The notes under the pieces: generated by a model
Told to the model about the DNA's origin: nothing
The model's input: only the letters and a program-made list of their open reading frames with translations
Database searches by the model: none
Part shown: positions 7,089 through 30,444 of the stretch, piece after piece
Layout: every line of letters starts with the position of its first letter
How positions within the stretch are numbered: position 1 is the stretch's first letter
DNA from: Chromatiales bacterium
GTDB lineage: Bacteria > Pseudomonadota > Gammaproteobacteria > Chromatiales > Chromatiaceae
DNA: 32,720 nt
NCBI GenBank assembly: GCA_050050175.1
Contig: JASFUT010000001.1
Span: 1 to 32,720 of the forward strand
Reading direction: 5' to 3'
Translations under genes and position numbers: made by a program

Positions 7089-7230
7089 GGACGCGACCCC
7101 CTCTGGTGGATCGCCCATCGGGATGCGGGCATGCCGAGCCATGGGCGAGCCTTCAGTATAGGGGGCTTGACGAGACGCGTTAAGGCCGGGCGCGCATGCC
7201 GTCGTCGTCCCGCCGGTCCGGGAACCGAAG

Positions 7231-7250
7231 AGGGGGCGCAGCGGCCCCCT
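7231..7250 (-). terminator. Short GC hairpin after the GlcG-like gene
   Basis: AGGGGGC (7231-7237) pairs with GCCCCCT (7244-7250), 25 nt past the stop at 7275. The following U-tract on the minus strand is poor (CTTCGGTTCC). Confidence 0.3.
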
Positions 7251-7274
7251 GGATCCGTCCGCCCCGGCGGTGGG

Positions 7275-7775
7275 TCACATGGCCATCTCGAGGTCCATGC
7301 GGACGGCGTCGACCCCGGCCTGGGCACACTCCTCGTCGACCGCTCCGTCGGGCGCGCCGCTCACCCCGACGCCGCCCACCAGGGAGCCACCCACTTCGAT
7401 GGGCACGCCGCCTGGCGCCATGACCAGGCCGTCGACGCGCCCGATGGGGCCGTCCGCCATATCGGCGAGTGCGGACGTGGCAGCGTTGAAGTTCGCGGCC
7501 GTGTACGCCTTCATGCGGCTGATAGACGCGGTGATGGGCGCGGCGATGGTGTCGCGCAGGGTGACCTGGACATTGCCCTCCCGGTCGACGACGGTGACAC
7601 CGATCTGGATACCCTTCTCAGTGCAGGCCGCCACCGCCCCCTGGGCGATCCGCTGGGCCATGGGCATGGACAGCCGCTTGAGGTCGACCGTGACCGGCGC
7701 GTCTGCAGCCTGGGCGGCCAGCGGCGCGCTCAGCGCGAGGCTCAGGGCGGCGACAGTGATGGCTCTTGTATTCAT
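7275..7775 (-). CDS. Secreted GlcG/HbpS-like (DUF336) haem-binding family protein
   Basis: The ORF is open to 7892, but ATG 7775 is preceded by AGGAGG and yields a signal peptide (MNTRAITVAALSLALSAPLAAQA). The conserved GlcG core is GVTVVDREGN ... SRMKAYTAA ... GGVPI ... GGVGVSGA. Confidence 0.75.
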   Translation of the reverse strand: MNTRAITVAALSLALSAPLAAQAADAPVTVDLKRLSMPMAQRIAQGAVAACTEKGIQIGVTVVDREGNVQVTLRDTIAAPITASISRMKAYTAANFNAATSALADMADGPIGRVDGLVMAPGGVPIEVGGSLVGGVGVSGAPDGAVDEECAQAGVDAVRMDLEMAM

Positions 7776-8060
7776 ATCCCCTCCTAAAGGTCTCTTGTGT
7801 TGGTGCATGGCGGGACCCCGCACCTCGATGCGTCCAGGCAGGGCGACGGCCGCCACGAACAGGATAGATGGCGGCGGACCGGGCGGATGCAAGGTGATAG
7901 CAGCGATATCGGTGTGGGAATCGCCTCGGGCAGCCGGACCGGGGCGCGCTGCTTGCGTGGGTGGACCGGAGCCAGGGAGCGAGACGATCGGGCGCGGCGG
8001 GCGCGGGTCTTGACGAAACGCGACTCGGCAGGACGATGCCGGCGGATGCCCGCAAGCGCC

Positions 8061-9284
8061 TCAGGCGCCGTAGTGGGCCCGGACGTAGTCGTCGAGGATC
8101 TGCTTGAACTCCTCGGCGATGTGATCGCCCTTGAGGGTGACGGTCTTCTCACCGTCGACGTAGACCGGGGCGGCGGGGCGCTCCCCACTGCCCGGCAGGC
8201 TGATTCCGAGGTTGGCGTGCCTGCTCTCGCCGGGACCGTTGACCACGCAGCCCATCACGGCCACGGTCATCTCCTCCACGCCGGGGTACTCGCGCTGCCA
8301 GAGGGGCATGCGACCGCGCATGTATGCCTGGATATCCTGGGCGAGCTGCTGGAAGTAGGTGCTGGTGGTGCGACCGCAGCCCGGGCAGGCCACGACCACG
8401 GGCGCGAAGGAGCGCAGACCCATCGACTGAAGGATCTCCTGGGCGACCAGCACCTCCCGGGTGCGGTCGCCGCCGGGCTCGGGCGTCAGGGAGATGCGGA
8501 TGGTGTCGCCTATGCCCTCCTGGAGCAGCACCGCGAGCGCCGCGGTGGACGCGACTATGCCCTTGGAGCCCATGCCGGCCTCGGTGAGGCCCAGGTGCAG
8601 GGCGTAGTCGCAACGCCCGGCCAGCATCCGGTAGACCCCGATCAGGTCCTGGACGCCGCTCATCTTGCAGGAGAGGATGATGCGGTCCCGCCCAAGCCCC
8701 AGCTCCTCGGCGCGGCGGGCGCTGTCCAGGGCCGAGGCGACCATGATCTCGCGGGTCATCTCGTCCGCGTCCCTCGGCTCGGGTGCGCGGGCGTTCTCGT
8801 CCATCATACGCGCCACCAGCTCCGCGTCCAGGCTGCCCCAGTTGACGCCGATGCGCACGGGCTTGCCGAAGCGGCAGGCGGTCTCGATCATGGCGGCGAA
8901 CTGGGCGTCCTTCTTGTCGCCGCGGCCCACGTTGCCGGGATTGATCCGGTATTTGGCCAGCGCCTCGGCGCACCCGGGATAGCGGGTGAGCAGCCGATGC
9001 CCGTTGTAGTGGAAGTCGCCCACCAGCGGCACGCCCACGCCCTGGCGGTCCAGGGCCTCGCGGATGGCGGGCACGGCGCGGGCCGCATCGTCGTTGTTCA
9101 CCGTGATGCGCACCAGCTCGGAGCCGGCGCGGGCCAGGTCTGCCACCTGACGCACGGTGGCGGTCGCGTCCGCGGTATCGGTGTTGGTCATGGATTGCAC
9201 GACCACGGGCGCGCCGCCGCCGACCCGGACGCCGCCGACGCCCACGCCGACGGTGGAATGACGCTGGATGGGGGTTGCCGACAT
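8061..9284 (-). CDS. ispG: 4-hydroxy-3-methylbut-2-en-1-yl diphosphate synthase (MEP pathway)
   Basis: 407 aa. Characteristic IspG/GcpE sequence: [68 protein letters not shown] (three Fe-S cysteines). Confidence 0.93.
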
Positions 9285-9361
9285 TGGGGCCGACCGGGTT
9301 GCCCAGAGGGCCCCACATCATACCCGATGCGGCGGGCCCGCGGCAGACCACCGGGGGACCC

Positions 9362-11191
9362 TCAGGCCGCGGGGACCTCCTCTTCCGCCTCCTCGGCCAC
9401 CACGGATTTGGCCATGCGCTTGGCGAAATAGTAGATCCGCCTGAAGCGCTCGATGATGTCGATCTCCAGGGTATAGGCGGCCACCCGGTTGGGCTCTTCG
9501 GCCACCAGGCGCTTGGCCTGGTGGAGCGAGGCGGAGTCGGTGAGCTCGCCGATGGTTCGTTTCATGGCGATCACCGCTCTCGCCTGCTCCTCGTCGTTCT
9601 GGGCCACGGAATGGACGGCGGCGTGGACGCTCTCGATCACCTGCTCGTGGAACCGGCGCAGGACGTCCCGCGTGCCCTGGCTGATGCGGATGCCATGATC
9701 CAGCCGTTCCTCGCCCAGCACCACCAGGTTGGTCTCGATGACGTCCCCGATGTTCTCGAGGTCGTTGACCACCTCCATGAGCCGGATGAGCCGCTGGGTC
9801 TGGATCTCGGTGAGCGCCTGCTTGCTGACCTTGCCCAGGTACTCGATGGTGTGCGCGTGCAGCGTGTCGACCTCGTCGTCCATGCGCGCGATCCGGCGAA
9901 GCTCCGTGCGGGTGCCGCTGAAGATCGCCGGGAGGATCAGCCTGAGCATCTCGTCGATCCGCTCGCCCATGTGCTCCACCTCGAGACGAACGCGGTCCAG
10001 GGCCAGGGAAGGCGTGGACAGAAGCTCGGCGTCCAGGTACCTGGGCCGCACCACCATTCCCTCCTCGTCCAGAGGGCGGTCCGGCACCAGCCACTCCACC
10101 AGACGCGCCAGCTGGCTCGTAAGCCCTATGAAGATGAGGGTGTTTGCGACGTTGAAGATCGTGTGGGCGTTGGCGATCTGCCGCGGTGCGGCCGCGGCGA
10201 TGCGATCCATGCCGCTGAGCTCGGGATAGGCGGGGGATATCCAGCGCACGAACTGGGCCAGCTGGTCGATCAGGCCCACCCAGATGACCACGCCGGCCAC
10301 GTTGAAGAGCACGTGCACGATGGCCGCCCGGACCGCCTCCCGCGGCTTGCCGATGGCCGCCAGCATGGCGGTCACGCAGGTGCCGATGTTGGCGCCGAAC
10401 GCCAGGGCGATGCCGGCCGGCAGGGTGACGAACCCCTGGCTCGCCATGACGATGACGATGCCCGTAGTGGCCGCCGAGGACTGGATGAGCGCGGTGAAGC
10501 CGGCAGCCACCAGGATGGCCAGCAGGGGATTCTCGAGATGCACCATGACGTCGAGGAAAGGCGGATAAGAGCGCAGGGGATCCATCGCGTCGCTCATGAC
10601 GCTCATGCCGAAGAAGATCATGCCCATGCCCATCAGGATGGCGCCGTAGTGGCGGATGCGCTCCTGCCGGGAGACGAACAGCATGGAGAAGCCGGCCCCG
10701 ATCATCAGGAGCGCGGCCTTGGTGACCTTGAACGCGATCAGCTGGGCGGTGAACGTGGAGCCTATGTTCGCGCCCATGATCACGCCGATGGACTGGGAGA
10801 ATGACATCAACCCGGCGGTAATGAATCCCACCAACAGGACCGTGGTGACGGAGGAGGACTGGATGATCCCTGTGACGATGGCCCCGGATATGGCGCCGGT
10901 AAACCGGTTGGTGGTCAGGCGGGCCAGGATGTCGCGCATGCGCTCGCCGGCCACCGCCTTGAGGGCGTCGGCCATCTGCTCCATGCCGAAGAGGAAGAGC
11001 GCGAGCCCGCCGAACAGCGACATGCCCATGGTGCCCCAGCTCATCCCGTCGACGGCGACCCCGCCGGCCGCGGCGGCCAGGACCGGCAGACCGCCCGCCA
11101 ACGCAGCCGCAGCGCCGAGCGGGGCAAGCCGGGCCGCCGGCAGGGCGGGCCCGCGCCCCCGCCGGGTGTGCGGTTGCCCGCGGACGTGCAT
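9362..11191 (-). CDS. Na+/phosphate cotransporter family protein with C-terminal PhoU-like repeats (NptA/YjbB type)
   Basis: About 609 aa. The Na_Pi_cotrans repeats are visible (LFGMEQM...TGIIQSSSVTTV and ALIQSSAATTG), followed by a long helical PhoU-like tail. ATG 11191 overlaps the uspA stop by 1 nt (TGATG); GTG 11194 is an alternative start. A shorter start (MSWGTMGMSLFGG) is also possible. Confidence 0.85.
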   Translation of the reverse strand: MHVRGQPHTRRGRGPALPAARLAPLGAAAALAGGLPVLAAAAGGVAVDGMSWGTMGMSLFGGLALFLFGMEQMADALKAVAGERMRDILARLTTNRFTGAISGAIVTGIIQSSSVTTVLLVGFITAGLMSFSQSIGVIMGANIGSTFTAQLIAFKVTKAALLMIGAGFSMLFVSRQERIRHYGAILMGMGMIFFGMSVMSDAMDPLRSYPPFLDVMVHLENPLLAILVAAGFTALIQSSAATTGIVIVMASQGFVTLPAGIALAFGANIGTCVTAMLAAIGKPREAVRAAIVHVLFNVAGVVIWVGLIDQLAQFVRWISPAYPELSGMDRIAAAAPRQIANAHTIFNVANTLIFIGLTSQLARLVEWLVPDRPLDEEGMVVRPRYLDAELLSTPSLALDRVRLEVEHMGERIDEMLRLILPAIFSGTRTELRRIARMDDEVDTLHAHTIEYLGKVSKQALTEIQTQRLIRLMEVVNDLENIGDVIETNLVVLGEERLDHGIRISQGTRDVLRRFHEQVIESVHAAVHSVAQNDEEQARAVIAMKRTIGELTDSASLHQAKRLVAEEPNRVAAYTLEIDIIERFRRIYYFAKRMAKSVVAEEAEEEVPAA

Positions 11192-11664
11192 CACCCCTTC
11201 ACCGCCTTGACCACAGTCACGGGGATGGGGCTGAGACGCACGACATGCTCGGAGACCGAGCCCAGCATCAGGTGCTTGAGGCCGGTGCTGCCCTTGCTGC
11301 CCATGACGATGGCCGAGGCCTTCATCTTCTCCGCCACCTCCAGGATGCGCGTGGTGGGCAGGCCGAGGACGAGCAGAGGCTCCAGGTCCTGCAGGGCCTT
11401 CACACTCGGGTGGCTCGCTGCCACCCCGGCGAGGAACCCGTCCAGCATTTCGCGGGCGACGTCCTCGATCCGCCCGAGGCGCTTCTTCTTGAAGGCCTGG
11501 GAGTAATAGCCGGGCATGTCCGCCGGGTCATGGACTACGTGCAGCACGCGCACCGGGGCCTTGGTGCATCGGGCCAGCCGGCATGCATAGAGCAGAGCCG
11601 CCTCCGAGTATTTAGAGAAGTCGACTGGCACCAGAACCGGCGCTTCCTCCGTCTTGGCTCCCAT
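11191..11664 (-). CDS. Universal stress protein (UspA family)
   Basis: 157 aa: VLVPVDFSKYSEAAL ... VLHVV ... ASAIVMGSKGSTGLKHLMLGSVSEHVVRLSPIPVTVV, the canonical Usp ATP-binding G-2x-G-9x-G(S/T) region. It is translationally coupled to the Na/Pi transporter gene. Confidence 0.82.
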   Translation of the reverse strand: MGAKTEEAPVLVPVDFSKYSEAALLYACRLARCTKAPVRVLHVVHDPADMPGYYSQAFKKKRLGRIEDVAREMLDGFLAGVAASHPSVKALQDLEPLLVLGLPTTRILEVAEKMKASAIVMGSKGSTGLKHLMLGSVSEHVVRLSPIPVTVVKAVKG

Positions 11665-11800
11665 GATGGCGCGGCCTTATTGTTACAAAATTATGACGGA
11701 GTATAACGAAATCCCGGGCGCGGTCGCGGCTCCCGAATCGCGCCGCGCTGCATCCGGACCCGGGCAATTGTGGGAGTTCGGCGCCGCGCCAACAGAGAAC

Positions 11801-11819
11801 GCCCGGCGGAAGGCCGGGC
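11801..11819 (-). terminator. Hairpin after sqr
   Basis: GCCCGGC (11801-11807) pairs with GCCGGGC (11813-11819) around a 5-nt loop, 32 nt past the sqr stop. On the minus strand it is followed by GTTCTCTGTTGG. Confidence 0.4.
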
Positions 11820-11850
11820 GCTCTTGTGGTCCCGCGTCGGGCAGCAGCGG

Positions 11851-13122
<1,272 letters not shown>

Positions 13123-13398
13123 TCAGTCCTCCATTGCCTGGGGATGTTGTCGTTGTATCCATCTGCGGCGCCCCGGCGTGGGGCGGCCGGGGCTGTAAGA
13201 GCGCCCGGTCTCTTTGGCAGAGGTCGTCGAATGTCAGCTTGCGGACGGTCGGACAGCGCGCCGTTCGTGCTCGGCCTGGGCCCATTTTCGCCGATTTCGG
13301 GCGCCAATGCCTGCTCTGGCGCATACGACGGACATTCTTCAGGGTCCGGGACCCGATGACAAGCCTGGCGGACACAGAGGGCCGGGCTCCCCGGGCTG

Positions 13399-16300
13399 TC
13401 ACCGGAAGTCCCGGGAGCGGGTCGGAAGCCGGCCCAGCAGGTCGCTGTGGTCCAGCAGCCGTCTGGCCACCACGTGCAGGACGCCGCCCTCGCGCTGCAC
13501 ATCCCCGACCACACCAAGCAGACGGGCGTTGAGCATGACCAGGCGCTGGCGATCCGCCACCTGCCGCCAGATCACCAGATTGATCTGCCCCGTCTCGTCC
13601 TCCAGAGTCACAAAGGTGACGTTGTTGGCGGAGGCCGGGCGCTGGCGGTTGATCACCAGCCCCCCGGTGCGCACCCGATCCCCGTGGCGCAGCCCGTCGA
13701 GGTCCCGGGCGCAGAGCAGCCCGCGCCGGCTCAGCTGCCGCCGCAGCAAGGCCAGGGGATGGCGCCTCAGGGTCAGCCCCAGGCTGGCGTAGTCGGCGAG
13801 AATCGCCTGTCCTTCGGTGGGCGCGGGCAGATCGGGCACCTGCCCCGCATCGGTGGGCCGCCCCGGTGGCGCCGCGTCCGTCGGCAGGTCGAACAGCGGA
13901 AGCGGCGTCTGAACGCCCGTGACCTCCCAGGCGGCGCGGTGGCGGTCGCCGGCCAGCCCCGCCAGGGCGTCGGCGGCGGCCAGCGACTCCAGATCCCGCC
14001 GGTCGAGACGTGCCCGCCGGGCCAGGTCCTGCACGTCCCGGAACCGCCGCTGCGCCCGGGCCGCCAGCAGCCGCGCGGCGCCGGCGCGGGACAGGCCTTT
14101 GACCATCAGCAGGCCCAGCCTCATCGCCGGCGGGGACGCCGCCCCAGCGCGGGACGGCTCCAGGGTGCAGTCTCCGTCGCTCGTGTGCACGTCCACCGCA
14201 AGGACCTCCACGCCGGCGCGCCGGGCCGCCTGCACCAGCTGGGCGGGGGCGTAGAAGCCCATGGGCTGGCTGTTGAGCAGGGCGGCGAAGAAGGCCGCCG
14301 GCTCATGACACTTGAGCCAGGCGGAGACGTAGACCAGCAGGGCGAAGCTGGCGGCGTGGGACTCGGGGAAGCCGTACTCCCCGAAGCCCAGGATCTGCTG
14401 ATAGATCCGGCGGGCGAAGGCCTCGTCGTAGCCGCGCTCCGTCATGCCCCGGATCAGTCGGTCCTCGAACTGCTCCAGGGTGCCCCGGCGGCGCCAGGCG
14501 GCGATGGAGCGCCGGAGCCGGTCCGCCTCGCCGGGGCTGAAGCCCGCCGCCACCATGGCGACCTTGATCACCTGCTCCTGGAAGATGGGCACGCCGAGGG
14601 TGCGGCCCAGCACCTCCCGGACCGCCTCCGAGGGATAGGTCACCTCCTCCAGCCCCTGGCGGCGCTTGAGATAGGGGTGGACCATGTCCCCTTGGATAGG
14701 TCCCGGACGGACGATGGCCACCTCGATCACCAGGTCGTAGAAGCGCTCGGGGCGCAGACGCGGCAGCATAGCCATCTGGGCGCGGGACTCGATCTGGAAC
14801 ACGCCCAGGGTGTCGGCGCGCCGGATCATCGCATAGACGGCCGGATCCTCCGGGGGGACGTTGTGCAGGCCCAGGGGGTTGCCCGGGCCGGGCGGATTCT
14901 TGCTGCCGGGCTGGAGACCATCGGGCTCGCGGCTGGCAGCCGCTCCTACCGTGCCCGCGCCTCCCGCAGGGGCGCTCGCTGAGCGCGAACCTCCGTGGCC
15001 CGAAGCACCCGTCCCGGGCCCGGGTCCGCCGGGCTCGCGGCTGGCAGCCGCTCCTACGGCGCCCGCGCCTCCCGTAGGAGCGCTCGCTGAGCGCGAACCT
15101 CCGTGGCCCGAAGCACCCGTCCCGGGCCCGGGTCCGCCGGGCTCGCGGCTGACAGCCGCTCCTACGGCGCCCGCGCCTCCCGTAGGAGCGCTCGCTGAGC
15201 GCGAACCTCCGTGGCCCGAAGCACCCGTCCCGGGCCCGGGTCCGCCGGGCTCGCGGCTGACAGCCGCTCCTACCGTGCCCGCGCCCCCCGCAGGAGCGCT
15301 CGCTGAGCGCGAATCCATTTGCGCCTCTGTGTCTCTGCGGCTCGGTCTTTCACTCCACCCGCGATAGGCATTGATCAGATCGAAGGCGCGGCGCACGGCC
15401 GAGAGCATGCCGAGCGCCAGGCAGTCCACCTTGAGCAGCCCCAGGGCCTCCAGGTCGTCCTTGTCCCACTGGATCACCGTGCGCTCGGCCATCGCGGCGT
15501 TCTCGATGGGCACCAGCCGGGAGAGAGGCCCGCGGGAGATGACGAAGCCCCCCACGTGCTGGGACAGGTGGCGCGGGAATCCCAGGATCTCCCGGCTCAT
15601 GACCAGCACCCGACGCAGCAGGGGGTTGCCGGGATCCAGACCCGCCTCGCGCACCCGCTCGGGGTCGATGGTGCCGCCGTCCCACCAGGTGAGGTTGTGG
15701 GCCAGCCGGTCCACCTGGTCCAGGTCGAGCCCGAGGGCCTTGCCCACGTCGCGCACCGCGCTCTTGGGCCGATAGCTGATCACCGTGGCCGCCAGCGCCG
15801 CCCGGTCCCGGCCGTACCTGGCGTACACGTACTGGATCACCTCCTCGCGGCGCTGGTGCTCGAAGTCCACGTCGATGTCCGGCGGCTCGTCGCGCTCCCG
15901 GGAGATGAAGCGCTCGAACAGCAGCTCCATACGCGCCGGGTCCACCTCGGTGATGCCGAGCGCATAGCAGACCGCCGAGTTGGCCGCCGAGCCCCGGCCC
16001 TGGCAGAGGATGCCGCGGCTGCGGGCGAAGCGCACGATGTCGTGGACCGTGAGGAAATAGGGCTCGTAGCGCAGCTCGGCGATGAGCGACAGCTCATGCT
16101 CGACCAGGCGGCGCACCTTCGCCGGCTCTCCCCCCGGCCAGCGCCGTTGCAGCCCCTGCTCGGTCAGCTCGCGCAGCCGGGCGCCGGGGTCCCGTCCCGG
16201 GGGCACCAGCTCGTCCGGGTACTCGTAGCGCAGCTCCTCCAGGGAGAAGGTGCAGCGCCGCGCCACCTCCAGGGTCTCGGCCAGCAGCTCCGAAGGATAG

Positions 16301-19851: not shown

Positions 19852-20142
19852 GCGCGCCTCCCCCGTTCTTGTTGCTGATCCGCCGCCGGCGGGCCTTGCC
19901 CTCCCCCTAATCATATCTGACCGGGAGCGGGGTTCAGGCTGCCGGCGTGATACGCTGCGCTTGCCCGAACCGCGGGCTGGTTGGTCCCATCGTTGGCGGC
20001 TGGCGGCCGCTCGCACCAATCCATCAGCCAGCGCCCGCCCGGTTGTCCCTGCCGACTGTCTACCGTCTCCCCTCTACATGACCCTCCCTTCGACCCGGGG
20101 ACCCGATCATTGGCGGCGGCTTCGCCGCCGGGCCCCTTCGGT

Positions 20143-20159
20143 TGTTACCTTTGGTAACG
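20143..20159. promoter_or_regulatory. TGTTAC-N5-GTAAC inverted repeat upstream of the sensor-kinase operon
   Basis: TGTTAC ctttg GTAACG. It has the same half-sites and the same 5-nt spacing as the palindromes at 25989-26026, and lies about 20 nt upstream of the mini-ORF ATG at 20178. Confidence 0.4.
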
Positions 20160-20177
20160 GCTGATACGCTCAATCGG

Positions 20178-20369
20178 ATGGCGCGTCCGCCCGCAACCGA
20201 CCGGCAGCTCGACGTGGTGCTCCTGCTGGGGCTGTTCGCGTTGCTGTTGTTCGCCTCCCCCATGACCGAGTGGTGGGCCGCTCCAGGCAAGCCCTGGTAT
20301 CTGCCCTACCTGTTCTGGGCCCTGATCATCGGCCTCGGCGGCTGGCTGCAGCGCCGACGCGGCGACTGA
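20178..20369 (+). CDS. Small 2-TM membrane protein, translationally coupled to the SSS-domain kinase (same position as cbrX in Pseudomonas)
   Basis: 63 aa from ATG 20178 (the ORF track starts at a TTG at 20142). Third-position GC is about 90 percent. Hydrophobic segments are VVLLLGLFALLLFASP and YLPYLFWALIIGLGGWL. The stop TGA (20367-20369) overlaps the kinase ATG (20369) as TGATG. No clear SD is visible. Confidence 0.55.
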   Translation: MARPPATDRQLDVVLLLGLFALLLFASPMTEWWAAPGKPWYLPYLFWALIIGLGGWLQRRRGD

Positions 20370-23309
20370 TGCCTCACGAGCTTCCGGTCCTGTTCGGGGC
20401 GGGCATCGCCTACCTGATGGTGCTGTTCCTCATCGCCTACGCCACGGACCGGTCGTGGATGCCGGAGCGCTGGGTACGCCACCCGGCGGTCTACGTCCTC
20501 TCCCTCGGGGTCTACGCCAGCTCCTGGAGCTACTACGGCAGCGTGGGATTCGCCCGGTCCGAGGGCTTCCAGTTCCTCACCATCTATCTCGGGGTGACCA
20601 TCGCCTTCCTGATGAGCCCCGTGCTGCTGCGCCCCCTGCTGCGGCTCACCCGCGAGTACCAGCTGACCTCGCTCGCGGACCTGTTCGCGTTCCGCTACCG
20701 CAGCCAGACCGCCGGGGTCCTTGTGACCCTGTTCATGCTGGTGGGCTCGCTGCCGTACATCGCGCTGCAGATCCGGGCGGTGACCGAGTCCCTGCGCGTG
20801 CTCACCCAGGAGGCGACGCCGCAGGCCCTGGCCCTGGGCTTCTGCGCGATCCTGATCCTGTTCGCCATCCTGTTCGGGGCCCGGCACATCTCCCCCCGCG
20901 AGAAGCATCGGGGGCTGGTGGTGGCCATCGCCTTCGAGTCGCTGGTGAAGCTGGTGGCCCTGCTGAGCGTCGGGCTGCTCGCGGTGTTCGGCGTGTTCGA
21001 CGGGCCGGTCGACCTGGGCCGATGGCTGTCGGAGAACCCGGAGGCGGTGGATGCGCTCTACCGACCGGTCCAGGAGGGGCCCTGGGGCACACTGCTGTTT
21101 CTCGCCTTCGCCGCCGCCTTCCTGCTGCCCCGGCAGTTCCACATGACCTTCACCGAGAACCCGGGGCCGGGCTCGCTCGGGGCGGCGAGCTGGGGCTTCC
21201 CCCTGTTCCTGCTGCTGCTCAACCTCGCCATCCCGCCGGTCCTCTGGGCGGGGACGCGGCTGGGTCTGGAGATGGACGCCGACTACTACGTGCTCGGCAT
21301 CACCCTGCACCAGGGTCCCGCCTGGCTGCCGGTGGTCGCCTTCCTGGGCGGGGTCTCGGCGGCCAGCGCGATGGTGATCGTCAGCACGCTGGCGCTCTCG
21401 GCCATGAGCCTCAACCACCTCCTGCTGCCCGCAAGCTATCCCGACCCGCGCGTGGATCTCTACCGCTGGCTGCTCTGGGGCCGAAGGCTGCTCATCACCA
21501 TGATCATCATGGCGGGCTACGGCTTCTACGAACTGCTCGAGCACAACGAGGGTCTGGTCCAGCTGGGCCTGATCTCCTTCGTGGCGGTGGCCCAATTCGT
21601 GCCCGGCGTGGTCGGCGTCCTGTACTGGCGGCGTGCCAACCGTGCCGGGTTCATCGCCGGCCTGCTGGCCGGCATCGGCTTGTGGACGCTGACCCTGCTG
21701 CTGCCGCTGCTGGAGGCCTCGGGGCTGGCCCACACTGAGCTGAACCTGTCCGCCCTTCGAAGCTCGACGGGTCTGGGCCATTGGCAGTTCGCCACCTTTC
21801 TGTCGCTGGCGTTCAACACCGCCCTGTTCGTCCTGGTATCGCTGATCTCCCGCCAGTCGGCCATGGAGGAAGACGCGGCGCGGGCCTGTTGCACGGAGGC
21901 CTTCACGCCGCTCAAGGGTGTGGTGGCGGCGGGATCCACGCCCGAGTTCACCGCTGCGCTCGCGGACATCGTGGGCGCGGAGACGGCGGAGAAGGAGGTG
22001 CGCCAGGCACTGGAGGACCTGGGCATGTCCGCCGGGGAGACCCGACCCTCGGAGCTGCGCCGGCTGCGCGAGCGCATCGAGCGCAACCTCTCGGGTCTGA
22101 TCGGTCCGCAGATGGCCCATATGATCATCAACCGCCGCCTGGTTCTGGACGAGCGCTCCAGGACCGCACTGGCCGACTCCATGCGCTACGTCGAGGAGCG
22201 CCTGCAGGACTCACGCTCCCGCCTGCAGGGCCTGAGCGCGGCACTGGACAGCCTGCGGCGCTATCATCGGCAGATCCTGATCGACCTGCCGCTCGGGGTG
22301 TGCGCGACAGGTCCCGATGACACCGTGCTGATCTGGAACCTGGCGATGGAGAGGATGACGGGCCTGAGGGGATCGGAGGCGACTGCACGGCCGCTGCAGA
22401 ACCTGCGCGCGCCCTGGGGCCAGACCCTGGCCGGTTTCGCGCGCGTCGAGGACCGCTACATCCACCATCTCGAGGTCAGGCTCGGCGGCCGCGCCCATTG
22501 GTTCAACCTGCACAAGGCCACCACCCTGGACCCGGACCTGAGCCCCGAAGAGCCCGCATCGCGCGCGGGCCTGGTCATCCTGCTGGAGGACCTTACCAGC
22601 CTTGAGAACCTCGAGGCGGAGCTGGCGCACAGCGACCGCCTGGCCTCCATCGGTCGTCTCGCCGCCGGGGTGGCCCACGAGATCGGCAATCCGGTGACCG
22701 GAATCGCCTCGCTCACCCAGAACCTGCGGGAGGAGTCCGCCGATCCCGGAGTGCGCGAGGCCTGCGACCAGATCCTGACACAGACGCGGCGGATCTCGGG
22801 CATCCTGCAGTCGCTCATGGGCTTCAGCCACAGCGGTGCGGTGAGCCGCGCCCCCGAGGAGCTGGCACTGAGGGCGGTGATCGAGGAGGCCGTCGGACTG
22901 GTGCGCCTGACCCATGCGGGCAAGCAGGTGAGCTGCGAGCTGAGCTGCCCGGAGGGGATCAGGGTCGCGGGCGACCGCCAGCGCCTCTCCCAGGTCCTTG
23001 TCAACCTGTTCACCAACGCCTGCGACGCCTCCGGGCCCGGCGACCGGGTGGACGTATACGCCTGGGAGGACGGAGACCGGGTCCGGATCGAGGTCCTCGA
23101 CCAGGGCGAAGGCATTCCGGACAACATTCGCGACGCCGTCTTCGACCCCTTCTTCACCACCAAGGCGCCCGGGGAGGGCACGGGCCTGGGACTGCCCATG
23201 GCCCATCGGATCATCCAGGAGCACCACGGCAGCATCGAGATCGCGGCCCGCCCGGGCGGCGGAACCCGCGTCGTGGTCTCACTGCCCAGGCCGCCCGAGC
23301 GACCCGTCC

Positions 23310-23332
<23 letters not shown>
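20369..23332 (+). CDS. CbrA-like sensor histidine kinase: N-terminal sodium:solute-symporter (SLC5) domain, linker, PAS, HisKA, HATPase_c
   Basis: 987 aa from ATG 20369 (the ORF track starts upstream, inside the mini-ORF). About 490 aa form a multi-TM SSS-like sequence, followed by a soluble helical linker where CbrA carries its STAC domain. Then come PAS ([26 protein letters not shown]), an H-box ([12 protein letters not shown]), an N-box ([11 protein letters not shown]), and G-boxes ([15 protein letters not shown]). Confidence 0.86.
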
Positions 23333-24653
<1,321 letters not shown>

Positions 24654-24795
24654 GAAAGCCCCCGCCCGCGACCCGGGATCGACCGGGGCGAGCCCTTGCG
24701 GCGCCAACCATGCCACCGCCGGTCTCGTCCCCGTCTTGCGCCCGCTGCCTCGTGTCTGCCGGAAGACCCTCAACGCAATGCAGCGGGCAGGCCGC

Positions 24796-25518
24796 TCAGC
24801 CCGTCAGCCAGCCCCAGATCACCGGCAGCAGAACGGTGGTGGCCAGACCGTTGAGACCCATGGCCAGACCGGAGAAGGCCGCCGCCACCTCACCCATGTG
24901 CACCGCACGGCCGGTCCCGATGCCGTGGGCGGCCACACCCATCGCCAGCCCCTGCGCCATGGGGCTGCGTACCCGCAGCCGCTCCAGCAGCCAGGGTCCC
25001 AGGGCTGCGCCGAGGATGCCGGTCAGGATCACCAGCACGGCGGTCAGGGAGGGCAGGCCGCCGAGGCGCTCGGAGATGCCCATGGCCACCGGGGTGGTCA
25101 CCGACTTGGGCGCGATCGAGACGAGCGCCTGTGTACTGGCACCGGCCAGCTTCGCGATGGCCAGCGCCGACAGCACCGCGGTAAGCGAGCCGCTGACCAA
25201 CGACACGAGCAACGCCAACGGGTGGCGCCTGAGCAGCGCCAGCTGACGGTACAAGGGCACCGCCAGCGCCACCGTCGCCGGACCGAGGAGAAAGTGCACG
25301 AACTGCGCGCCCTGGAAGTAGTGCTCGTAGGGGACATCGGTCAGTGTCAGCACGGCCACCAGCACCAGCACGGTGAGCAGCACCGGGTTGAGCCAGGCCC
25401 TGCGCCCCAGCCTCCGGTACAGCCAGCGGGCCAGCACGAACACCGACACCGTCAGCGTCAGGTGCAGCAGCGGGCTGGCGCTGAGATAGACCCAGAGCGC
25501 GGCGACCCCGTCGGTCAT
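24796..25518 (-). CDS. lrgB: LrgB/CidB-family membrane protein
   Basis: 240 aa from ATG 25518 (the ORF is open to 25617). Typical LrgB sequence: LNPVLL ... LLGPATVALAVPLY ... APKSVTTPVAMGISE ... GVAAHGIGT. Confidence 0.85.
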   Translation of the reverse strand: MTDGVAALWVYLSASPLLHLTLTVSVFVLARWLYRRLGRRAWLNPVLLTVLVLVAVLTLTDVPYEHYFQGAQFVHFLLGPATVALAVPLYRQLALLRRHPLALLVSLVSGSLTAVLSALAIAKLAGASTQALVSIAPKSVTTPVAMGISERLGGLPSLTAVLVILTGILGAALGPWLLERLRVRSPMAQGLAMGVAAHGIGTGRAVHMGEVAAAFSGLAMGLNGLATTVLLPVIWGWLTG

Positions 25519-25862
25519 CACTCGTCCCCGACCCCGCTGAGGCGCTGCATGAGCCAGCCCGTGACCGCGATGGTGAGCAGCGTGCTGACCAGCAGCGACG
25601 CGGTCAGCGGCAGCCACTGGTCGCCGAGCAGCCTCAGGTGGGTCATCACTCCGACACCGGCCGGAACGAACAGCAGCGACAGCTGCGCCAGAAGGCCGTT
25701 GGCGGTATCCGCCAACGGCTGCGGGACGCCTCCCCGGATCACCAGTCCCAGGAACAACAGTGCCATGCCGACCACCGGCCCGGGGACCGGCCAGCCCAGC
25801 ACGACCACCATCAGCTCACCTGCCAGCTGGCAGAGCAGCAGTACCGCAAGAGACTCGAGCAC
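25518..25862 (-). CDS. lrgA: LrgA/CidA-family (holin-like) small membrane protein
   Basis: 114 aa from GTG 25862, with GAGGAA 6 nt upstream. Upstream of that, the long ORF loses coding character. It has four hydrophobic segments (LLLCQLAGELMV, VVGMALLFLGLV, LSLLFVPAGVGVM, LVSTLLTIAVTGWL). The stop overlaps the lrgB ATG (TGATG). Confidence 0.7.
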   Translation of the reverse strand: MLESLAVLLLCQLAGELMVVVLGWPVPGPVVGMALLFLGLVIRGGVPQPLADTANGLLAQLSLLFVPAGVGVMTHLRLLGDQWLPLTASLLVSTLLTIAVTGWLMQRLSGVGDE

Positions 25863-25988
25863 GCCGTATTCCTCGGGTCTTCCAATCTCGATCGCCCGGC
25901 GCCCCGGGTCCGGCACCGCCGGAAAGGCCTGCGGGGTGAGGAGCGGCGATCCGTCGGCGTCCCGGCGGGGTCCGGCGCACGACCGGCC

Positions 25989-26035
25989 GTTACCTCCCGT
26001 AACACCAGACGTTACTTTGGGTAACAAGAGTAACA
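25989..26035. promoter_or_regulatory. Cluster of five GTTAC/GTAACA half-sites (putative enhancer/UAS for the adjacent sigma-54 activator)
   Basis: GTTAC(25989)-ctccc-GTAACA(25999)-ccagac-GTTAC(26011)-tttgg-GTAACA(26021)-aga-GTAACA(26030). The two N5 palindromes have centres 22 bp apart. GTTAC(26011)-N14-GTAACA(26030) fits the TGTTAC-N14-GTAACA arrangement I recall for Pseudomonas CbrB. Confidence 0.55.
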
Positions 26036-26089
26036 CCCCACTCGCGCCCAAGCCCGGACAAGTCACTGACAACAAAGGACTATACCATC

Positions 26090-26105
26090 CGGCATGCTTT
26101 TCGCT
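26090..26105 (+). promoter_or_regulatory. Candidate sigma-54 (-24/-12) promoter for the SSS transporter gene
   Basis: cGGCATG-cttt-TCGCT compared with the consensus TGGCACG-N4-TTGCW. The GG and GC dinucleotides are at the exact canonical spacing. It lies 56 bp downstream of the half-site array and about 112 bp upstream of the ATG at 26218. Confidence 0.5.
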
Positions 26106-26217
26106 TGCCGCTGTTGGGTGACCCGACAGGCGGGTACGGCAGCGGCCGGAGCAGGCGGCTCGCACGGATAAGAAAGCAGTATCGAAATCACGAGCTCACC
26201 AAAGGGGGTCCGAACCC

Positions 26218-28188
26218 ATGGACGCGAAAGTAGTCTGGCTCTTCGTGTTCGTTGCGTTGTACTGGTCCTACTGCATCTTCTGGGGCATCAAAGGCGCACT
26301 GTCGTCCAGGACGGCCAGCGATTACTTCGTCGCAGGGCGGAAGATATCGCTCTGGGTGTTCATCCTGGCGGCAACCGCGACCTCGTTCTCCGGCTGGACC
26401 TTCATGGGCCACCCCGGCCTGCTCTACCGGGACGGTTTCCAGTACGCCTACGCCTCTTTCTATGCGATCACCATACCCTTCACGGGCGTGATCTTTCTCA
26501 AGCGCCAGTGGATGCTGGGCAAGCGCTTCGGGTTCATCACCCCCGGCGAGATGTTGTCCTACTACTTCAAGTCGGACACCGTGAGAATGCTCGTGGTGCT
26601 GGTCGCCCTGATCTTCTCGGTCCCCTACCTGGGCATACAGCTGCGGGCCTCCGGCTTTCTCTTCAACGTCCTCACCGACGGGCTGCTTAATGTCGACGTC
26701 GGCATGTGGCTCCTCTCGGCCGTGGTCATCATCTACGTCGCATCGGGCGGCCTCAGAGCCGTGGCCTATGTGGACACGGCCCAGGCGGTGCTGCTCGCGC
26801 TGGGGATAATCGCAATCGGCATCATCGCTTACGCCAATCTCCCGGAGGGTAGAACCTGGGCCGAGCTGCTGGGCGGGCTCGCGGCGTTCGATCAGGTGCG
26901 CACTCCCGACGGCTACAGCCACTACATCGCCATTCCCGGCGTCATCCAGTTCGGCGCGGGCCTGGGCACCGACTCAGCGCCGGTCGGCGGCGCCTGGACC
27001 GGGATCATGGTGCTGACCTACATGTTCGCGCTGATGGGCATACAGTCGGCGCCTGCCTTCTCCATGTGGGCCTTCGGGAACAAGAGCCCGCAGCCGTTCG
27101 CCCCCCAGCAGGTATGGGCCTCGTCGTTCGGCATCGGGCTGATCCTCATGGTGTTCACGGCCATGCAGGGTCTCGGTGCGCACTTCCTCGGGGCCAACGC
27201 GGCGTTCATGGCAGCCAACCCGGACCTGGTCAATCCGGTCATGCAGGAGGGGCTGCAGAAGATCGGTGTCAACGACCTGATGGCGGCCGAGGGCAAGCAG
27301 GGCATGCTGGTACCCCAGCTCATCTACCTGCTCTCCGACGCGGCCCCCTGGCTGGTGGGCCTGCTCTCGGTGTGTGCCCTGGCCGCCATGCAGTCCACGG
27401 GAGCGGCCTACATGTCCACCGCCGGCGGCATGCTGACCCGCGACATCATCAAGCGCTACATCCTGCCCCAGGCCTCGCACGTGCAGCAGAAGCTCTGGGG
27501 GCGGATCGGGGTGCTGGTGATCGTGCTGGCGGCCCTGCTGGTGGCGACCCACGCAACCGACGCGCTGGTGCTCCTCGGTGGCCTGGCCGTGGCCTACGGG
27601 TTCCAGATGTGGCCCGCGCTGATCGCCGTGTGCTGGTGGCCCTTCCTCACCCGGCAGGGGATCATCATCGGTCTGATCGCGGGGCTGATCGCCGTGACCC
27701 TGACCGAGAAGATCGGGGCCCAATTCATGCCCTGGGGCCGCTGGCCCATGACCATCCACTCCGCGGGCTGGGGCATCCTGTTCAACCTGGGGCTGGCGGT
27801 AATCGTCTCCGCCGTCACCCAGAACCGGCAGGACATGGAGCACCGAATGACCTTCCACAACTTCCTGCGCGAGCACGCCACGCTCACGGCCGGCAAGCGC
27901 AAGCTGATCCCGGTCGCATGGATCATCACCCTGGCGTGGTTCTTCTTCGGCATCGGCCCCGGCGCGGTCATCGGCAACACCATCTTCGGCAACCCGAACG
28001 ACGCCGCCACCTGGATCTTCGGCATCCCGTCCATCTGGGCCTGGCAGCTGCTCTGGTGGGCCCTGGGCGTCTTCATGATGTGGTTCCTGGCCTACAAGAT
28101 GGAGATGTCCCGGGTGCCTACGAAGGAGGTCGAGGCCCTGCAGGAGGACATCGGCGACATCCAGCTCGACGTGGAACGCCCGGGGTGA
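26218..28188 (+). CDS. Sodium:solute symporter (SSS/SLC5) family transporter, substrate unknown
   Basis: 656 aa with about 14 hydrophobic segments. The SSS signature region near the N-terminus is SDYFVAGRKISLWVFILAATATSFSGWTFMGHPG. AAGGGGG lies 10 nt upstream of the ATG. No DUF485/yjcH-like partner gene lies upstream. Confidence 0.9.
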   Translation: MDAKVVWLFVFVALYWSYCIFWGIKGALSSRTASDYFVAGRKISLWVFILAATATSFSGWTFMGHPGLLYRDGFQYAYASFYAITIPFTGVIFLKRQWMLGKRFGFITPGEMLSYYFKSDTVRMLVVLVALIFSVPYLGIQLRASGFLFNVLTDGLLNVDVGMWLLSAVVIIYVASGGLRAVAYVDTAQAVLLALGIIAIGIIAYANLPEGRTWAELLGGLAAFDQVRTPDGYSHYIAIPGVIQFGAGLGTDSAPVGGAWTGIMVLTYMFALMGIQSAPAFSMWAFGNKSPQPFAPQQVWASSFGIGLILMVFTAMQGLGAHFLGANAAFMAANPDLVNPVMQEGLQKIGVNDLMAAEGKQGMLVPQLIYLLSDAAPWLVGLLSVCALAAMQSTGAAYMSTAGGMLTRDIIKRYILPQASHVQQKLWGRIGVLVIVLAALLVATHATDALVLLGGLAVAYGFQMWPALIAVCWWPFLTRQGIIIGLIAGLIAVTLTEKIGAQFMPWGRWPMTIHSAGWGILFNLGLAVIVSAVTQNRQDMEHRMTFHNFLREHATLTAGKRKLIPVAWIITLAWFFFGIGPGAVIGNTIFGNPNDAATWIFGIPSIWAWQLLWWALGVFMMWFLAYKMEMSRVPTKEVEALQEDIGDIQLDVERPG

Positions 28189-28193
28189 GCCGC

Positions 28194-28251
28194 GACCGTT
28201 GGTCCGGTGGACCAACGCAGCGCGGCGAACGACCCGCCATGGACGGCGGGG
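28194..28251 (+). repeat. 58-nt double-hairpin repeat, copy A
   Basis: GACCGTTGGTCCGGTGGACCAACGCAGCGCGGCGAACGACCCGCCATGGACGGCGGGG. Hairpin 1 is CGTTGGTCC-ggt-GGACCAACG and hairpin 2 is CCCGCC-atggac-GGCGGG. Copy A starts 6 nt after the SSS stop codon. Confidence 0.85.
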
Positions 28252-28322
28252 CCGGGGTCAGACGGAGGCGACGAGGCCGCGGCACGGACGCCTGCTGCAG
28301 CTTGCGAGAAGGCACCGGTCCG

Positions 28323-28380
28323 GACCGTTGGTCCGGTGGACCAACGCAGCGCGGCGAACGACCCGCCATGGATGGCGGGG
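28323..28380 (+). repeat. 58-nt double-hairpin repeat, copy B
   Basis: Identical to copy A except for one base in the loop of hairpin 2 (ATGGAT instead of ATGGAC). It lies 129 nt downstream of copy A in the same orientation. Confidence 0.85.
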
Positions 28381-28678
28381 GCGGAAACGCATAGCCGACA
28401 GGTCCGGGAGCTGGATTCGGCCGCCCCGGGAGGCCGGCCCCGGAAGGGATCGCGAGTGACGCCGAAAGAGGGGTTTTCGGACGCCGGGCGTCCGGTTGGC
28501 ACGGCGGGGCATGAGATCGCAGTTCTCTCTCCGCCACCTGGGCCGGCACCGAATGGAGGGGCGAGGGAATACGCCCTGTCCTGCCGGGGGATCCCAAGCC
28601 GGGATTCGAGCCGGTCCGCACGGGAATGCCGGACGGGGGCCTGGCCTCGTCCGGCCTTCCTTCCCTGAGTGAGCCTTA

Positions 28679-28708
28679 GGGGGAGGCAGACGGCCTCCCC
28701 CTTTTTCT
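28679..28708 (+). terminator. Rho-independent terminator (plus-strand orientation)
   Basis: GGGGGAGGC (28679-28687), loop AGACG, GCCTCCCCC (28693-28701), followed directly by TTTTTCT. This is the cleanest intrinsic terminator in the window. It lies about 490 nt after the SSS stop and 145 nt before the next start codon. Confidence 0.75.
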
Positions 28709-29775: not shown

Positions 29776-29940
29776 TCACCAGACCCGCAGGATGTCGACG
29801 AAGAGCACGCGCAGGAAGAACAACAGGGCGATCGACCCGAACAGGAGGTGTCCGATGTCATTCTCGCCGTCGGGGTTTCGGAAGGTCAGCCCGTGGTAGG
29901 CGATGAAACCGGTGACCAGTAGAAATATCCAGTCGATCAC
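29776..29940 (-). CDS. Hypothetical very small membrane protein (about 54 aa)
   Basis: Two hydrophobic segments (IDWIFLLVTGFIAY and LLFGSIALLFFLRVLFV). Codon bias looks coding only from about GTG 29940 onward; the ORF track start at 30048 would overlap the upstream gene. The start is uncertain. Confidence 0.4.
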   Translation of the reverse strand: MIDWIFLLVTGFIAYHGLTFRNPDGENDIGHLLFGSIALLFFLRVLFVDILRVW

Positions 29941-29995
29941 TGCGATCCCCGGCGCGGGCCGGCACGGCCCCTCCCGGCCCGCCCGGGAGGCGGGC

Positions 29996-30352
29996 TCAGT
30001 AGCACGGCGGAAAATAGCAGCTCTCCACCGCCGGCCACAAGCGGGCATCGAAGAACGCGCCGAGGACCAGCGCGAGCACCCCGAGGAGCATCAGGACAAC
30101 GAGGGCCCTCGGGACGGGGCGCGGCGGCGATGTTGCACCGCCTGGCCGCCCGCTGGGCGCAGGCGCGGGGCGGTGACCGGCGAGGATCTCGCGGGCGTGG
30201 AACCGTGCCCAGTGGGGGACGACGCAGCCGAGCATGTAGGCGGCAAACACCCGCTCCATGAGCACTTCACCCGCGTCCCGGCCGTACCAGCGCCGGTAGG
30301 CGAGGCACAGCAGGTCGTATTCGCTGATGTCCAGCAGGGCGGCGGCGTCCAT
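29996..30352 (-). CDS. Hypothetical protein with a C-terminal TM anchor (118 aa)
   Basis: ATG 30352 is preceded by GGGAGG. The soluble N-terminal part is MDAAALLDISEYDLLCLAYRRWYGRD...VPHWARFHAREIL, followed by a Pro-rich linker, a TM segment (ALVVLMLLGVLALVLGAFF) and a Cys-containing tail CYFPPCY. I recognise no family. Confidence 0.55.
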   Translation of the reverse strand: MDAAALLDISEYDLLCLAYRRWYGRDAGEVLMERVFAAYMLGCVVPHWARFHAREILAGHRPAPAPSGRPGGATSPPRPVPRALVVLMLLGVLALVLGAFFDARLWPAVESCYFPPCY

Positions 30353-30444
30353 CACCTCCCGCTCGCCTTCGTTCGGTGCACCGCTGCGCATGCCTGGGAC
30401 CCGGGTAGGCTCTCGGCGCAAGTATAGATCCCGCGGCAACCGCC

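Follow-up and report, generated by a model that had tools for sequence, protein, structure and literature searches.

In a stretch of 32,720 nucleotides from a Chromatiales bacterium (contig JASFUT010000001.1), referred to here as the window, an array of GTTAC and GTAACA half-sites was identified upstream of a gene coding for a 656-aa transporter of the SSS family. The array probably serves as an upstream activating sequence, that is, as the enhancer from which a sigma-54 promoter of this gene is activated, and a two-component system related to CbrXAB of Pseudomonas is encoded close by. The initial annotation of this DNA, made from the sequence alone, had already proposed a circuit of enhancer, promoter and SSS target. 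This proposal now appears well supported, both by conservation and by homology to the experimentally characterised CbrXAB system. What is new here is a predicted CbrXAB-type sigma-54 circuit outside the Pseudomonadaceae, with palindromic sites and a protein-coding target.

The half-site array and its predicted promoter

Direct reading of the window placed GTTAC at 25989 and 26011 and GTAACA at 25999, 26021 and 26030, so that five half-sites lie within 47 bp (25989-26035). They include two perfect GTTAC-N5-GTAACA palindromes, enhancer site A (GTTACctcccGTAAC, 25989-26003) and enhancer site B (GTTACtttggGTAAC, 26011-26025), the centres of which (25996 and 26018) are 22 bp apart, as had been described before. 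An extra half-site C (GTAACA, 26030-26035) follows 4 bp past site B, and one GTTAC(26011)-N14-GTAACA(26030) combination is contained in the array; no strand is assigned to any of these sites. The starts of successive half-sites are 10, 12, 10 and 9 bp apart, which places all five on one face of the helix.

In the window, which has a GC content of 69%, GTTAC occurs five times and GTAAC four times, versus about 15 each expected from the composition. Seven of these nine pentamers sit inside three GTTAC-N5-GTAAC palindromes, the third of which (20144-20158) is located just 5' of the regulator operon and was absent from the initial annotation. When up to one mismatch was allowed, three palindromes were counted in the window versus 0.05 expected, and none of 100 shuffled sequences reached three. 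The palindromes are far more frequent than expected by chance, and a chance origin of the array is ruled out by the shuffling together with the palindrome count over 80 orthologous loci given below. The score of site B with a position weight matrix, 26.6, is within the top three of the window.

On the plus strand, cGGCATGcttttCGCT is found at 26090-26105, with GG (26091-26092) and GC (26103-26104) at the canonical -24/-12 spacing and oriented toward the SSS gene. This sigma-54 element, CGGCATGcttttCGCT, was identified by reading of the window and by conservation; it begins 54 nt past the last half-site and 64 bp beyond the palindromes. From its position, the start of SSS transcription is predicted near 26116, with a 5' untranslated region of about 100 nt. 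An IHF-like element is present on the minus strand at 26059-26071, where the plus-strand sequence CAAGTCACTGACA corresponds to TGTCAGTGACTTG on the minus strand, compared to the consensus WATCAANNNNTTR. Relative to the predicted start, sites A, B and C are centred at about -120, -98 and -83 and the IHF-like element at about -51, which fits the layout of sigma-54 promoters, with activator sites some 80-150 bp upstream of the transcription start and often an IHF site in between. The region CGGCATGCTTTTCGCTTGCCG (26090-26110) is itself quasi-palindromic: its minus-strand reading (26110-26095, CGGCAAGCGAAAAGCA) also contains GG-N10-GC, has a nearly equal score, and would face the enhancer and the divergent lrgA gene.

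For comparison, the SSS protein was used in a search with one genome per species, by which 80 orthologous loci (73-83% identity, 1.2 Mb in total) were collected from Sedimenticola, Thiohalophilus, Chromatiales, Beggiatoa-like, Thiotrichales-like, Arenicellales and other genomes and metagenome-assembled genomes. In these loci 47 perfect palindromes were found, versus about one expected: 23 are in the 420 bp that precede the SSS gene, 17 just 5' of cbrX, the first gene of the regulator operon, and four of the other seven occupy a third conserved position. For about 40 loci an alignment was made, anchored on the best -24/-12 match of each. Here, the same layout as in the window was identified, so that the array, and an equivalent of the -24/-12 element that had been noted in front of the SSS gene, are indeed conserved in the related intergenic regions: site A is followed at 21-24 bp (centre to centre) by site B, then by an optional GTAACA, the IHF-like element, the -24/-12 element and the SSS gene. 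The consensus of site A is (T)GTTACC-N4-yACAC, with a right half that is often degenerate; site B, GyTAC-N5-GTAAC(A), is the best-conserved site of the orthologous loci, and in Sedimenticola-type loci an extra GTAACA is frequent 7-9 bp after it. In a profile of 95 distinct sites, the preferred flanks were T (position -1) and A (position +15), with 59% each, extending the palindrome to T-GTTAC ... GTAAC-A.

Between array and promoter, the sequence YAANNNNYTGA, which resembles the IHF consensus, occurs in 15 of 39 loci at a constant 30-31 bp ahead of the -24, versus 0.02 expected per 75 bp. The -24/-12 element of the approximately 40 loci reads (C/T)GGCA(C/T)-N5-T(C/T)GC(A/T) and lies 90-250 bp before the ATG. 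In loci devoid of the array (Thiohalophilus, Beggiatoa-like, Arenicellales) the -24/-12 scores stay below 12 and none is convincing. By tblastn, 29 loci were found to carry the regulator gene upstream of the SSS gene at a distance of no more than 8 kb. In most of these the order is TrkA and DUF6394 (on the reverse strand), cbrX-cbrA-cbrB, SSS, TPR and DUF294, and in most the array comes directly after the stop codon of the regulator.

The closest relative found, locus L083, encodes a regulator 91% identical to that of the window. Its array consists of GTTACtttggGTAAC-N8-GTTACgtccgGTAAC-N4-GTAACA, followed by CGGCACGgttcTCGCT, and its five half-sites are the sole GTTAC/GTAAC pentamers in 2.8 kb. 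When L083 and the window were aligned, a clear phylogenetic footprint emerged: no difference was seen in the half-sites, in the IHF-like core or in the -24/-12 element, against diverged spacers and flanks.

The SSS gene (26218-28188, plus strand) was assigned by Pfam (SSF), with weak NCBIfam matches to PutP, VC_2705 and MctP. Acetate or another monocarboxylate is suspected as the substrate. A terminator-like hairpin at 28678-28702 of the plus strand, with a 10-bp GC-rich stem and a subsequent T run, probably marks where SSS transcription ends. It is followed on the same strand by a gene for a TPR protein and then by one for a DUF294/CBS/cNMP nucleotidyltransferase. A sigma-70 consensus scan of 24600-26300 for an alternative SSS or lrgA promoter found none. 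The whole window was also compared with Rfam, in case the leader contained a riboswitch or an RNA like CrcZ, and no family matched.

Two open reading frames (ORFs) without family matches, 28207-28668 (153 aa) and 29903-30427 (174 aa), flank the TPR gene. The former is situated after the SSS stop codon and before the hairpin; in the other loci, nothing matched half or more of its length. Farther upstream in the window (6480-13359), plus-strand ORFs of 435, 544, 509 and 529 aa are present, for which the only Pfam match is a very weak one to phage Mu Gp36. Nine of the orthologous loci (L004, L005, L009, L013, L016-L018, L022 and L026) lack both CbrXAB and the enhancer. In the last 60 nt or so 5' of their SSS start, before the ribosome-binding site, these contain AACAACAACAA or AAnAAnAA-like tracts, which resemble the Hfq/Crc 'CA motifs' of Pseudomonas catabolite repression.

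The CbrXAB-like system and its own putative promoter

The regulator operon on the plus strand consists of genes similar to cbrX, cbrA and cbrB. The cbrX-like gene (20178-20369) codes for a membrane peptide of 63 aa, which matched chain X of PDB 10ED in a phmmer search (E 3.2e-6) and shares the motif WW..P..WY.PYL.W with CbrX; its stop codon overlaps the start codon of the kinase gene (ATGA), which may couple the translation of the two, as is characteristic of cbrX and cbrA. The cbrA-like gene (20369-23332) codes for a transceptor histidine kinase of 987 aa with an SLC5 transporter domain and STAC, PAS, HisKA and HATPase domains. Of these, Pfam recognised HisKA and HATPase_c; the N-terminal 650 residues had no Pfam match, and neither with Pfam nor with NCBIfam was an SSF match at E<0.01 obtained. 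The kinship to CbrA emerged only from a search against solved structures, in which residues 9-588 were matched to chain A of PDB 10ED, the SLC5-STAC part of P. putida CbrA, with an E value of 6e-178 and 297 of 575 residues identical (52%). PDB 10ED is the cryo-electron microscopy structure of the P. putida CbrX-CbrA SLC5-STAC complex (PMC13488458). Of the nine residues of its histidine pocket, seven are kept in the kinase (Y51, S53, W55, F71, Y75, K196 and F406) and two are altered (A56 to S and F248 to A); the ligand could be histidine or something related.

The cbrB-like gene (23310-24653) codes for a response regulator in which a REC domain, the Sigma54_activat AAA+ domain and a Fis-type helix-turn-helix (HTH_8) were identified by Pfam and NCBIfam. 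It ends 1.3 kb upstream of the array, and the sigma-54 activator gene that had been reported at about this distance was thereby borne out. An orthologue of 70% identity is labelled 'two-component system response regulator CbrB' by NCBI, and in 31 orthologues the helix-turn-helix segment TETELA.RLGISRK.LWERRQR is nearly invariant. The system is regarded as a CbrXAB homologue because of the matches to chains A and X of 10ED and the CbrB-named orthologue. The initial annotation had compared the array to the CbrB recognition sequence, and this was a sound lead: kinase and small ORF are homologues of CbrA and CbrX, and the subsite hexamers TGTTAC and GTAACA match. The palindromes are likely bound by this CbrB-like regulator of the NtrC family.

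Reading of the window and conservation also revealed a putative sigma-70-type promoter of the operon (plus strand, 20142-20170), with a -35-like TTGTTA (20142-20147), a 17-bp spacer and an extended -10, TGaTACGCT (20162-20170). As only 7 nt separate the -10 from the ATG of cbrX (20178) and a Shine-Dalgarno sequence is absent, a leaderless or nearly leaderless mRNA would result. The third palindrome (TGTTACCTTTGGTAAC, 20144-20158, no strand assigned) overlaps the -35 and the spacer of this promoter. It is kept perfect at the same position in 17 of the 80 loci. Downstream of the palindrome, the window and about 20 loci share a conserved ACTG-G-TAcyCT and, after a further 6-8 nt, the ATG of cbrX, so that both the TG-n-TAcyCT element and its spacing to this codon are conserved. 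By analogy with NtrC at the promoter of its own operon, the third palindrome is presumed to be an autoregulatory, repressing site.

The module of palindromes and -24/-12 element is also found before acetyl-CoA synthetase genes (acs) of other lineages. In L065 (12071-12180) it occupies the third conserved position; it has its own IHF-like element and a near-perfect TGGCGCGaaatTTGCA, and a small unannotated ORF comes first. In L081 (78% identical) the cbrX palindrome is kept and the downstream genes are DUF4212, SSS, DUF294, RNase T and acs. Before acs (15130-15250) a tandem site pair was found together with CGGCACG-N4-TTGTG, which has TTGT instead of TTGC at the -12. Across the relatives, the regulon is seen to include the SSS transporter, acs and the DUF294 nucleotidyltransferase. 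The acetate regulon of Pseudomonas CrbS/R consists of acs, the permease ActP and a DUF294-type protein (PMC5715377), and this resemblance is the reason why an acetate-type role is suspected. With the module also placed before acs in relatives, the circuit probably governs how acetate, or a small organic acid like it, is taken up and activated. In the literature, GTTAC/GTAAC enhancer sites with a link to acetate were sought, and nothing beyond the CbrB papers was found.

Alternative readings of the array

Several observations weigh against the array being a CbrB-type enhancer of a sigma-54 promoter. The -24/-12 match in the window (CGGCAT...TCGCT) is only moderate, and by a weighted consensus score 38 window sites, counted on both strands, equal or beat it; in the GC-rich window alone the element is not above chance, so that its support comes from the conservation in orthologous loci. 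The rpoN gene is not located in the 32.7-kb window. A protein search for a named Pseudomonas CbrB with the C-terminal DNA-binding segment of the regulator returned only short unnamed fragments. In loci L032 and L047, cbrX-cbrA-cbrB is kept beside the SSS gene, but GTTAC sites and a -24/-12 element are absent. These two loci share a sigma-70-like promoter before the SSS gene (ATAAGGTTATGATTCTAAATTA...TATAAT, within 7700-8000 in both); in front of cbrX, too, their palindrome is degenerate or absent. The link between CbrXAB and the SSS promoter can therefore be lost. A changed recognition helix was sought in L032 and L047 and the helix-turn-helix was found unchanged; since this segment is nearly invariant everywhere, the co-variation comparison is uninformative. 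The repression at the cbrX promoter, in turn, is pure inference from the NtrC analogy.

The motif is also not confined to CbrXAB neighbourhoods. Metagenome contigs were scanned by DNA pattern alone, for two perfect palindromes 6-9 bp apart, and at least 120 loci were obtained. Among the matches listed, 108 of 120 tandem GTTAC-N5-GTAAC pairs occur in unrelated contexts. The 12 others among these listed matches adjoin CbrA/CbrB-like or DUF294 genes and provide an independent check of the proposed architecture: all 12 have a -24/-12 element that scores 13-15 of 15, is directed away from cbrB and follows the palindromes at 50-117 bp. In a contig family from rumen metagenomes (among the matches listed, L085-L203, for example L092, L109, L148 and L157), the arrangement GTTACTGACAGTAAC-CACGTGG-GTTACTGTCAGTAAC was noted, the palindromes of which are presumably the operator of a different regulator. 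As unrelated rumen-type families carry it, the motif alone is not diagnostic of CbrB.

The alternative that survives best, although it is unlikely, takes the N5 palindromes as incidental and the functional unit as a non-palindromic, monomer-bound site of the Pseudomonas type. In P. putida and P. aeruginosa, the CbrB site was defined as TGTTAC-N12-14-GTAACA-N15-19-GTAACA, with three non-palindromic subsites at IHF-assisted sigma-54 promoters (PMC6296734; PMC8871633). The N14 combination of the window, which had been singled out as CbrB-like, agrees with this published spacing and is found again in L083. In addition, the outermost half-sites (25989 forward and 26030 reverse) span about the length of the Pseudomonas F1...R2 footprint, a match that may or may not be meaningful. 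However, the N14 spacing recurs only in L083, whereas N17-19 is the spacing in the other approximately 38 loci, where 7-9 bp separate site B from the extra GTAACA and the N5 palindrome is conserved. The window contains only the F-N14-R pair, with no second GTAACA (R2) 15-19 bp further on, and the site before cbrX is a lone N5 palindrome without an N14 partner. The restriction of N14 to L083, the N17-19 spacing elsewhere and the lone cbrX site identify the N5 palindrome as the conserved unit. Of the earlier claim, the presence of the N14 combination thus stands, but not its role as the conserved arrangement. The N5 palindromes had been set outside the CbrB description; the Pseudomonas arrangement does differ, and the paired N5 palindromes are what about 40 loci conserve.

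Less likely still is an enhancer that works in both directions and is shared with the divergent lrgAB pair, as the initial annotation had proposed. The lrgA-like gene (25518-25862, minus strand; Pfam LrgA, E 4e-27) starts with GTG at 25862 behind the ribosome-binding site GAGGA, and the lrgB-like gene (24796-25518, minus strand; Pfam LrgB, E 3e-84) starts with an ATG at 25518 that overlaps the lrgA stop codon. The array lies in the 355-bp divergent region between lrgA and the SSS gene, 127 bp upstream of the lrgA start codon, and enhancers of sigma-54 promoters can act in either orientation. A minus-strand search of 25863-25988 nevertheless found no -24/-12 element facing lrgA, and the best minus-strand match (26110-26095) lies beyond the array and is a mirror reading of the SSS promoter. 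Moreover, lrgAB was found in none of the 80 orthologous loci. In L083 (1540-2180) lrgA is reduced to a remnant of about 30 codons, and an 8-bp tandem repeat, (CCCTACCG)x8, occupies the same place (about 2000-2070). As lrgAB is present only in the window, with the remnant in L083, the pair was probably inserted in a recent common ancestor of these two lineages and is decaying in that of L083, where enhancer, promoter and SSS gene are intact. Because lrgAB is a lineage-specific insertion without a -24/-12 element directed at it, the shared enhancer is unsupported, and lrgAB is probably not part of the circuit.

That the palindromes are operators of another transcription factor, for example a repressor encoded elsewhere, with the sigma-54 activator nearby by coincidence, is the least likely of the three: the tandem pairs in unrelated metagenomic contexts and some array-bearing loci without a regulator gene within 8 kb would be in line with it, but the half-site is the experimentally defined CbrB subsite (PMC6296734; PMC8871633), a copy of the palindrome also lies on the operon promoter of the regulator itself, all CbrAB-linked cases (among the matches listed, for the metagenomes) have the array 50-117 bp from a -24/-12 element, a distance usual for enhancers, and the synteny of the 80 loci revealed no other regulator gene conserved in the neighbourhood.

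Proposed circuit and comparison with known systems

For the array as a CbrB-type enhancer, a sequence of steps can be proposed from the sequence and from the known working of NtrC-family activators. The CbrA-like transporter-kinase, paired with the CbrX-like peptide, would phosphorylate the CbrB-like regulator (23310-24653), which would bind the two TGTTAC-N5-GTAACA-type palindromes as dimers. With their centres 22 bp apart, these lie on the same face of the helix, and the extra GTAACA half-site may help to recruit more subunits. The bound dimers would form the active AAA+ ring, and a DNA bend at the IHF-like element (about -51) would carry the ring to the sigma-54 RNA polymerase at the -24/-12 element (26090-26105). 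ATP hydrolysis would then open the promoter, and the 656-aa SSS gene would be transcribed. At the sigma-70-type promoter of cbrX-cbrA-cbrB, the single palindrome over the -35 and spacer would most likely serve negative autoregulation.

The mechanism itself is that of a standard bacterial enhancer. Its interest lies in the fact that CbrAB is at the top of carbon catabolite control in Pseudomonas, where the signal of CbrA and the mode of DNA binding of CbrB are still debated. A circuit with a simple local target and palindromic sites would offer a simpler comparative system for sensing by CbrA, for the contact of CbrB with DNA and for the evolution of the small-RNA cascade. It further predicts that largely autotrophic or mixotrophic sulfur oxidisers regulate the uptake of organic acids through sigma-54, and it provides a search pattern for the regulon in these genomes, TGTTAC-N5-GTAACA followed by GG-N10-GC.

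The site architecture resembles that of NtrC. At the enteric glnAp2 promoter, NtrC dimers bind palindromes whose two halves are separated by roughly one turn of the helix; the active oligomer is nucleated on two neighbouring sites, and activation occurs by DNA looping. A single NtrC site that overlaps the promoter of its own operon, as at glnL, autorepresses. Here, also, palindromes that would bind dimers are found in tandem 5' of a predicted sigma-54 promoter, with a single site at the putative promoter of the regulator operon. In contrast, the NtrC site is TGCACC-N5-GGTGCA, and sensor, signal and regulon are different as well.

Two further systems have kinases of the SLC5/STAC type. The CrbS/CrbR acetate switch of Vibrio and Pseudomonas has a regulon of an SSS-family permease, acs and a DUF294-type nucleotidyltransferase, as suggested here. 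However, CrbR is a LuxR-type regulator acting at sigma-70 promoters with an ACTU inverted repeat, and CrbS is a hybrid kinase (PMC5715377); CbrX, sigma-54 and GTTAC sites are not involved. A CrbS/R-like identity was rejected, since the regulator of the window is of the NtrC type, the kinase has no receiver domain and the GTTAC palindromes lie 5' of a -24/-12 element. In Sinorhizobium fredii, the RpuS/RpuR pair of an SLC5/STAC kinase and a regulator activates the neighbouring gene mctP for an SSS-family pyruvate symporter, but through a sigma-70 -10 box and an imperfect direct repeat from -80 to -43, without a sigma-54 enhancer (PMC9100948). An RpuS/R-like identity was rejected on the type of regulator and the type of site.

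The system most alike is CbrXAB of Pseudomonas, with its targets PcrcZ, PcrcY and PP2810. In both, cbrX overlaps the start of an SLC5-STAC-PAS kinase gene, which is followed by a gene for an NtrC-family regulator, and the recognition hexamers TGTTAC and GTAACA, predicted here, are identical. The promoter is of the sigma-54 type in both, here by prediction, with an IHF site, here IHF-like, between enhancer and promoter, and in most orthologous loci the regulated module follows directly after cbrB, in the place of crcZ in Pseudomonas. In contrast, the subsites of Pseudomonas CbrB are three, non-palindromic, 20-25 bp apart and thought to be bound by monomers, whereas tandem N5 palindromes are found here. 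The adjacent crcZ codes for a small RNA that sequesters Crc/Hfq, whereas the neighbour here is the SSS gene, with acs in relatives. Instead of the cbrA-cbrB-crcZ synteny, the order is cbrXAB, SSS, TPR and DUF294, with no CrcZ match in Rfam. A palindrome on the cbrX promoter is a further difference to Pseudomonas; autoregulation is not mentioned in the 2022 review of CbrAB (PMC8871633).

In reviews, CbrAB has been called unique to the Pseudomonadaceae (PMC8871633). The hosts of the orthologous loci identified here are instead sulfur-oxidising Gammaproteobacteria, with loci in Sedimenticola, Chromatiales, Thiotrichales-like and other gammaproteobacterial genomes and metagenome-assembled genomes. 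It is conceivable, and put forward only tentatively, that CbrXAB is an older gammaproteobacterial system and not an invention of the Pseudomonadaceae. Its ancestral role might then have been the direct sigma-54 activation of an adjacent SSS/DUF294/acs module, for taking up and activating organic acids, through palindromic dimer sites, combined with autorepression at its own leaderless-type promoter. The crcZ promoter of Pseudomonas might have descended from that target promoter, and its non-palindromic CbrB subsites might represent a derived, degenerate form of the tandem-palindrome enhancer.

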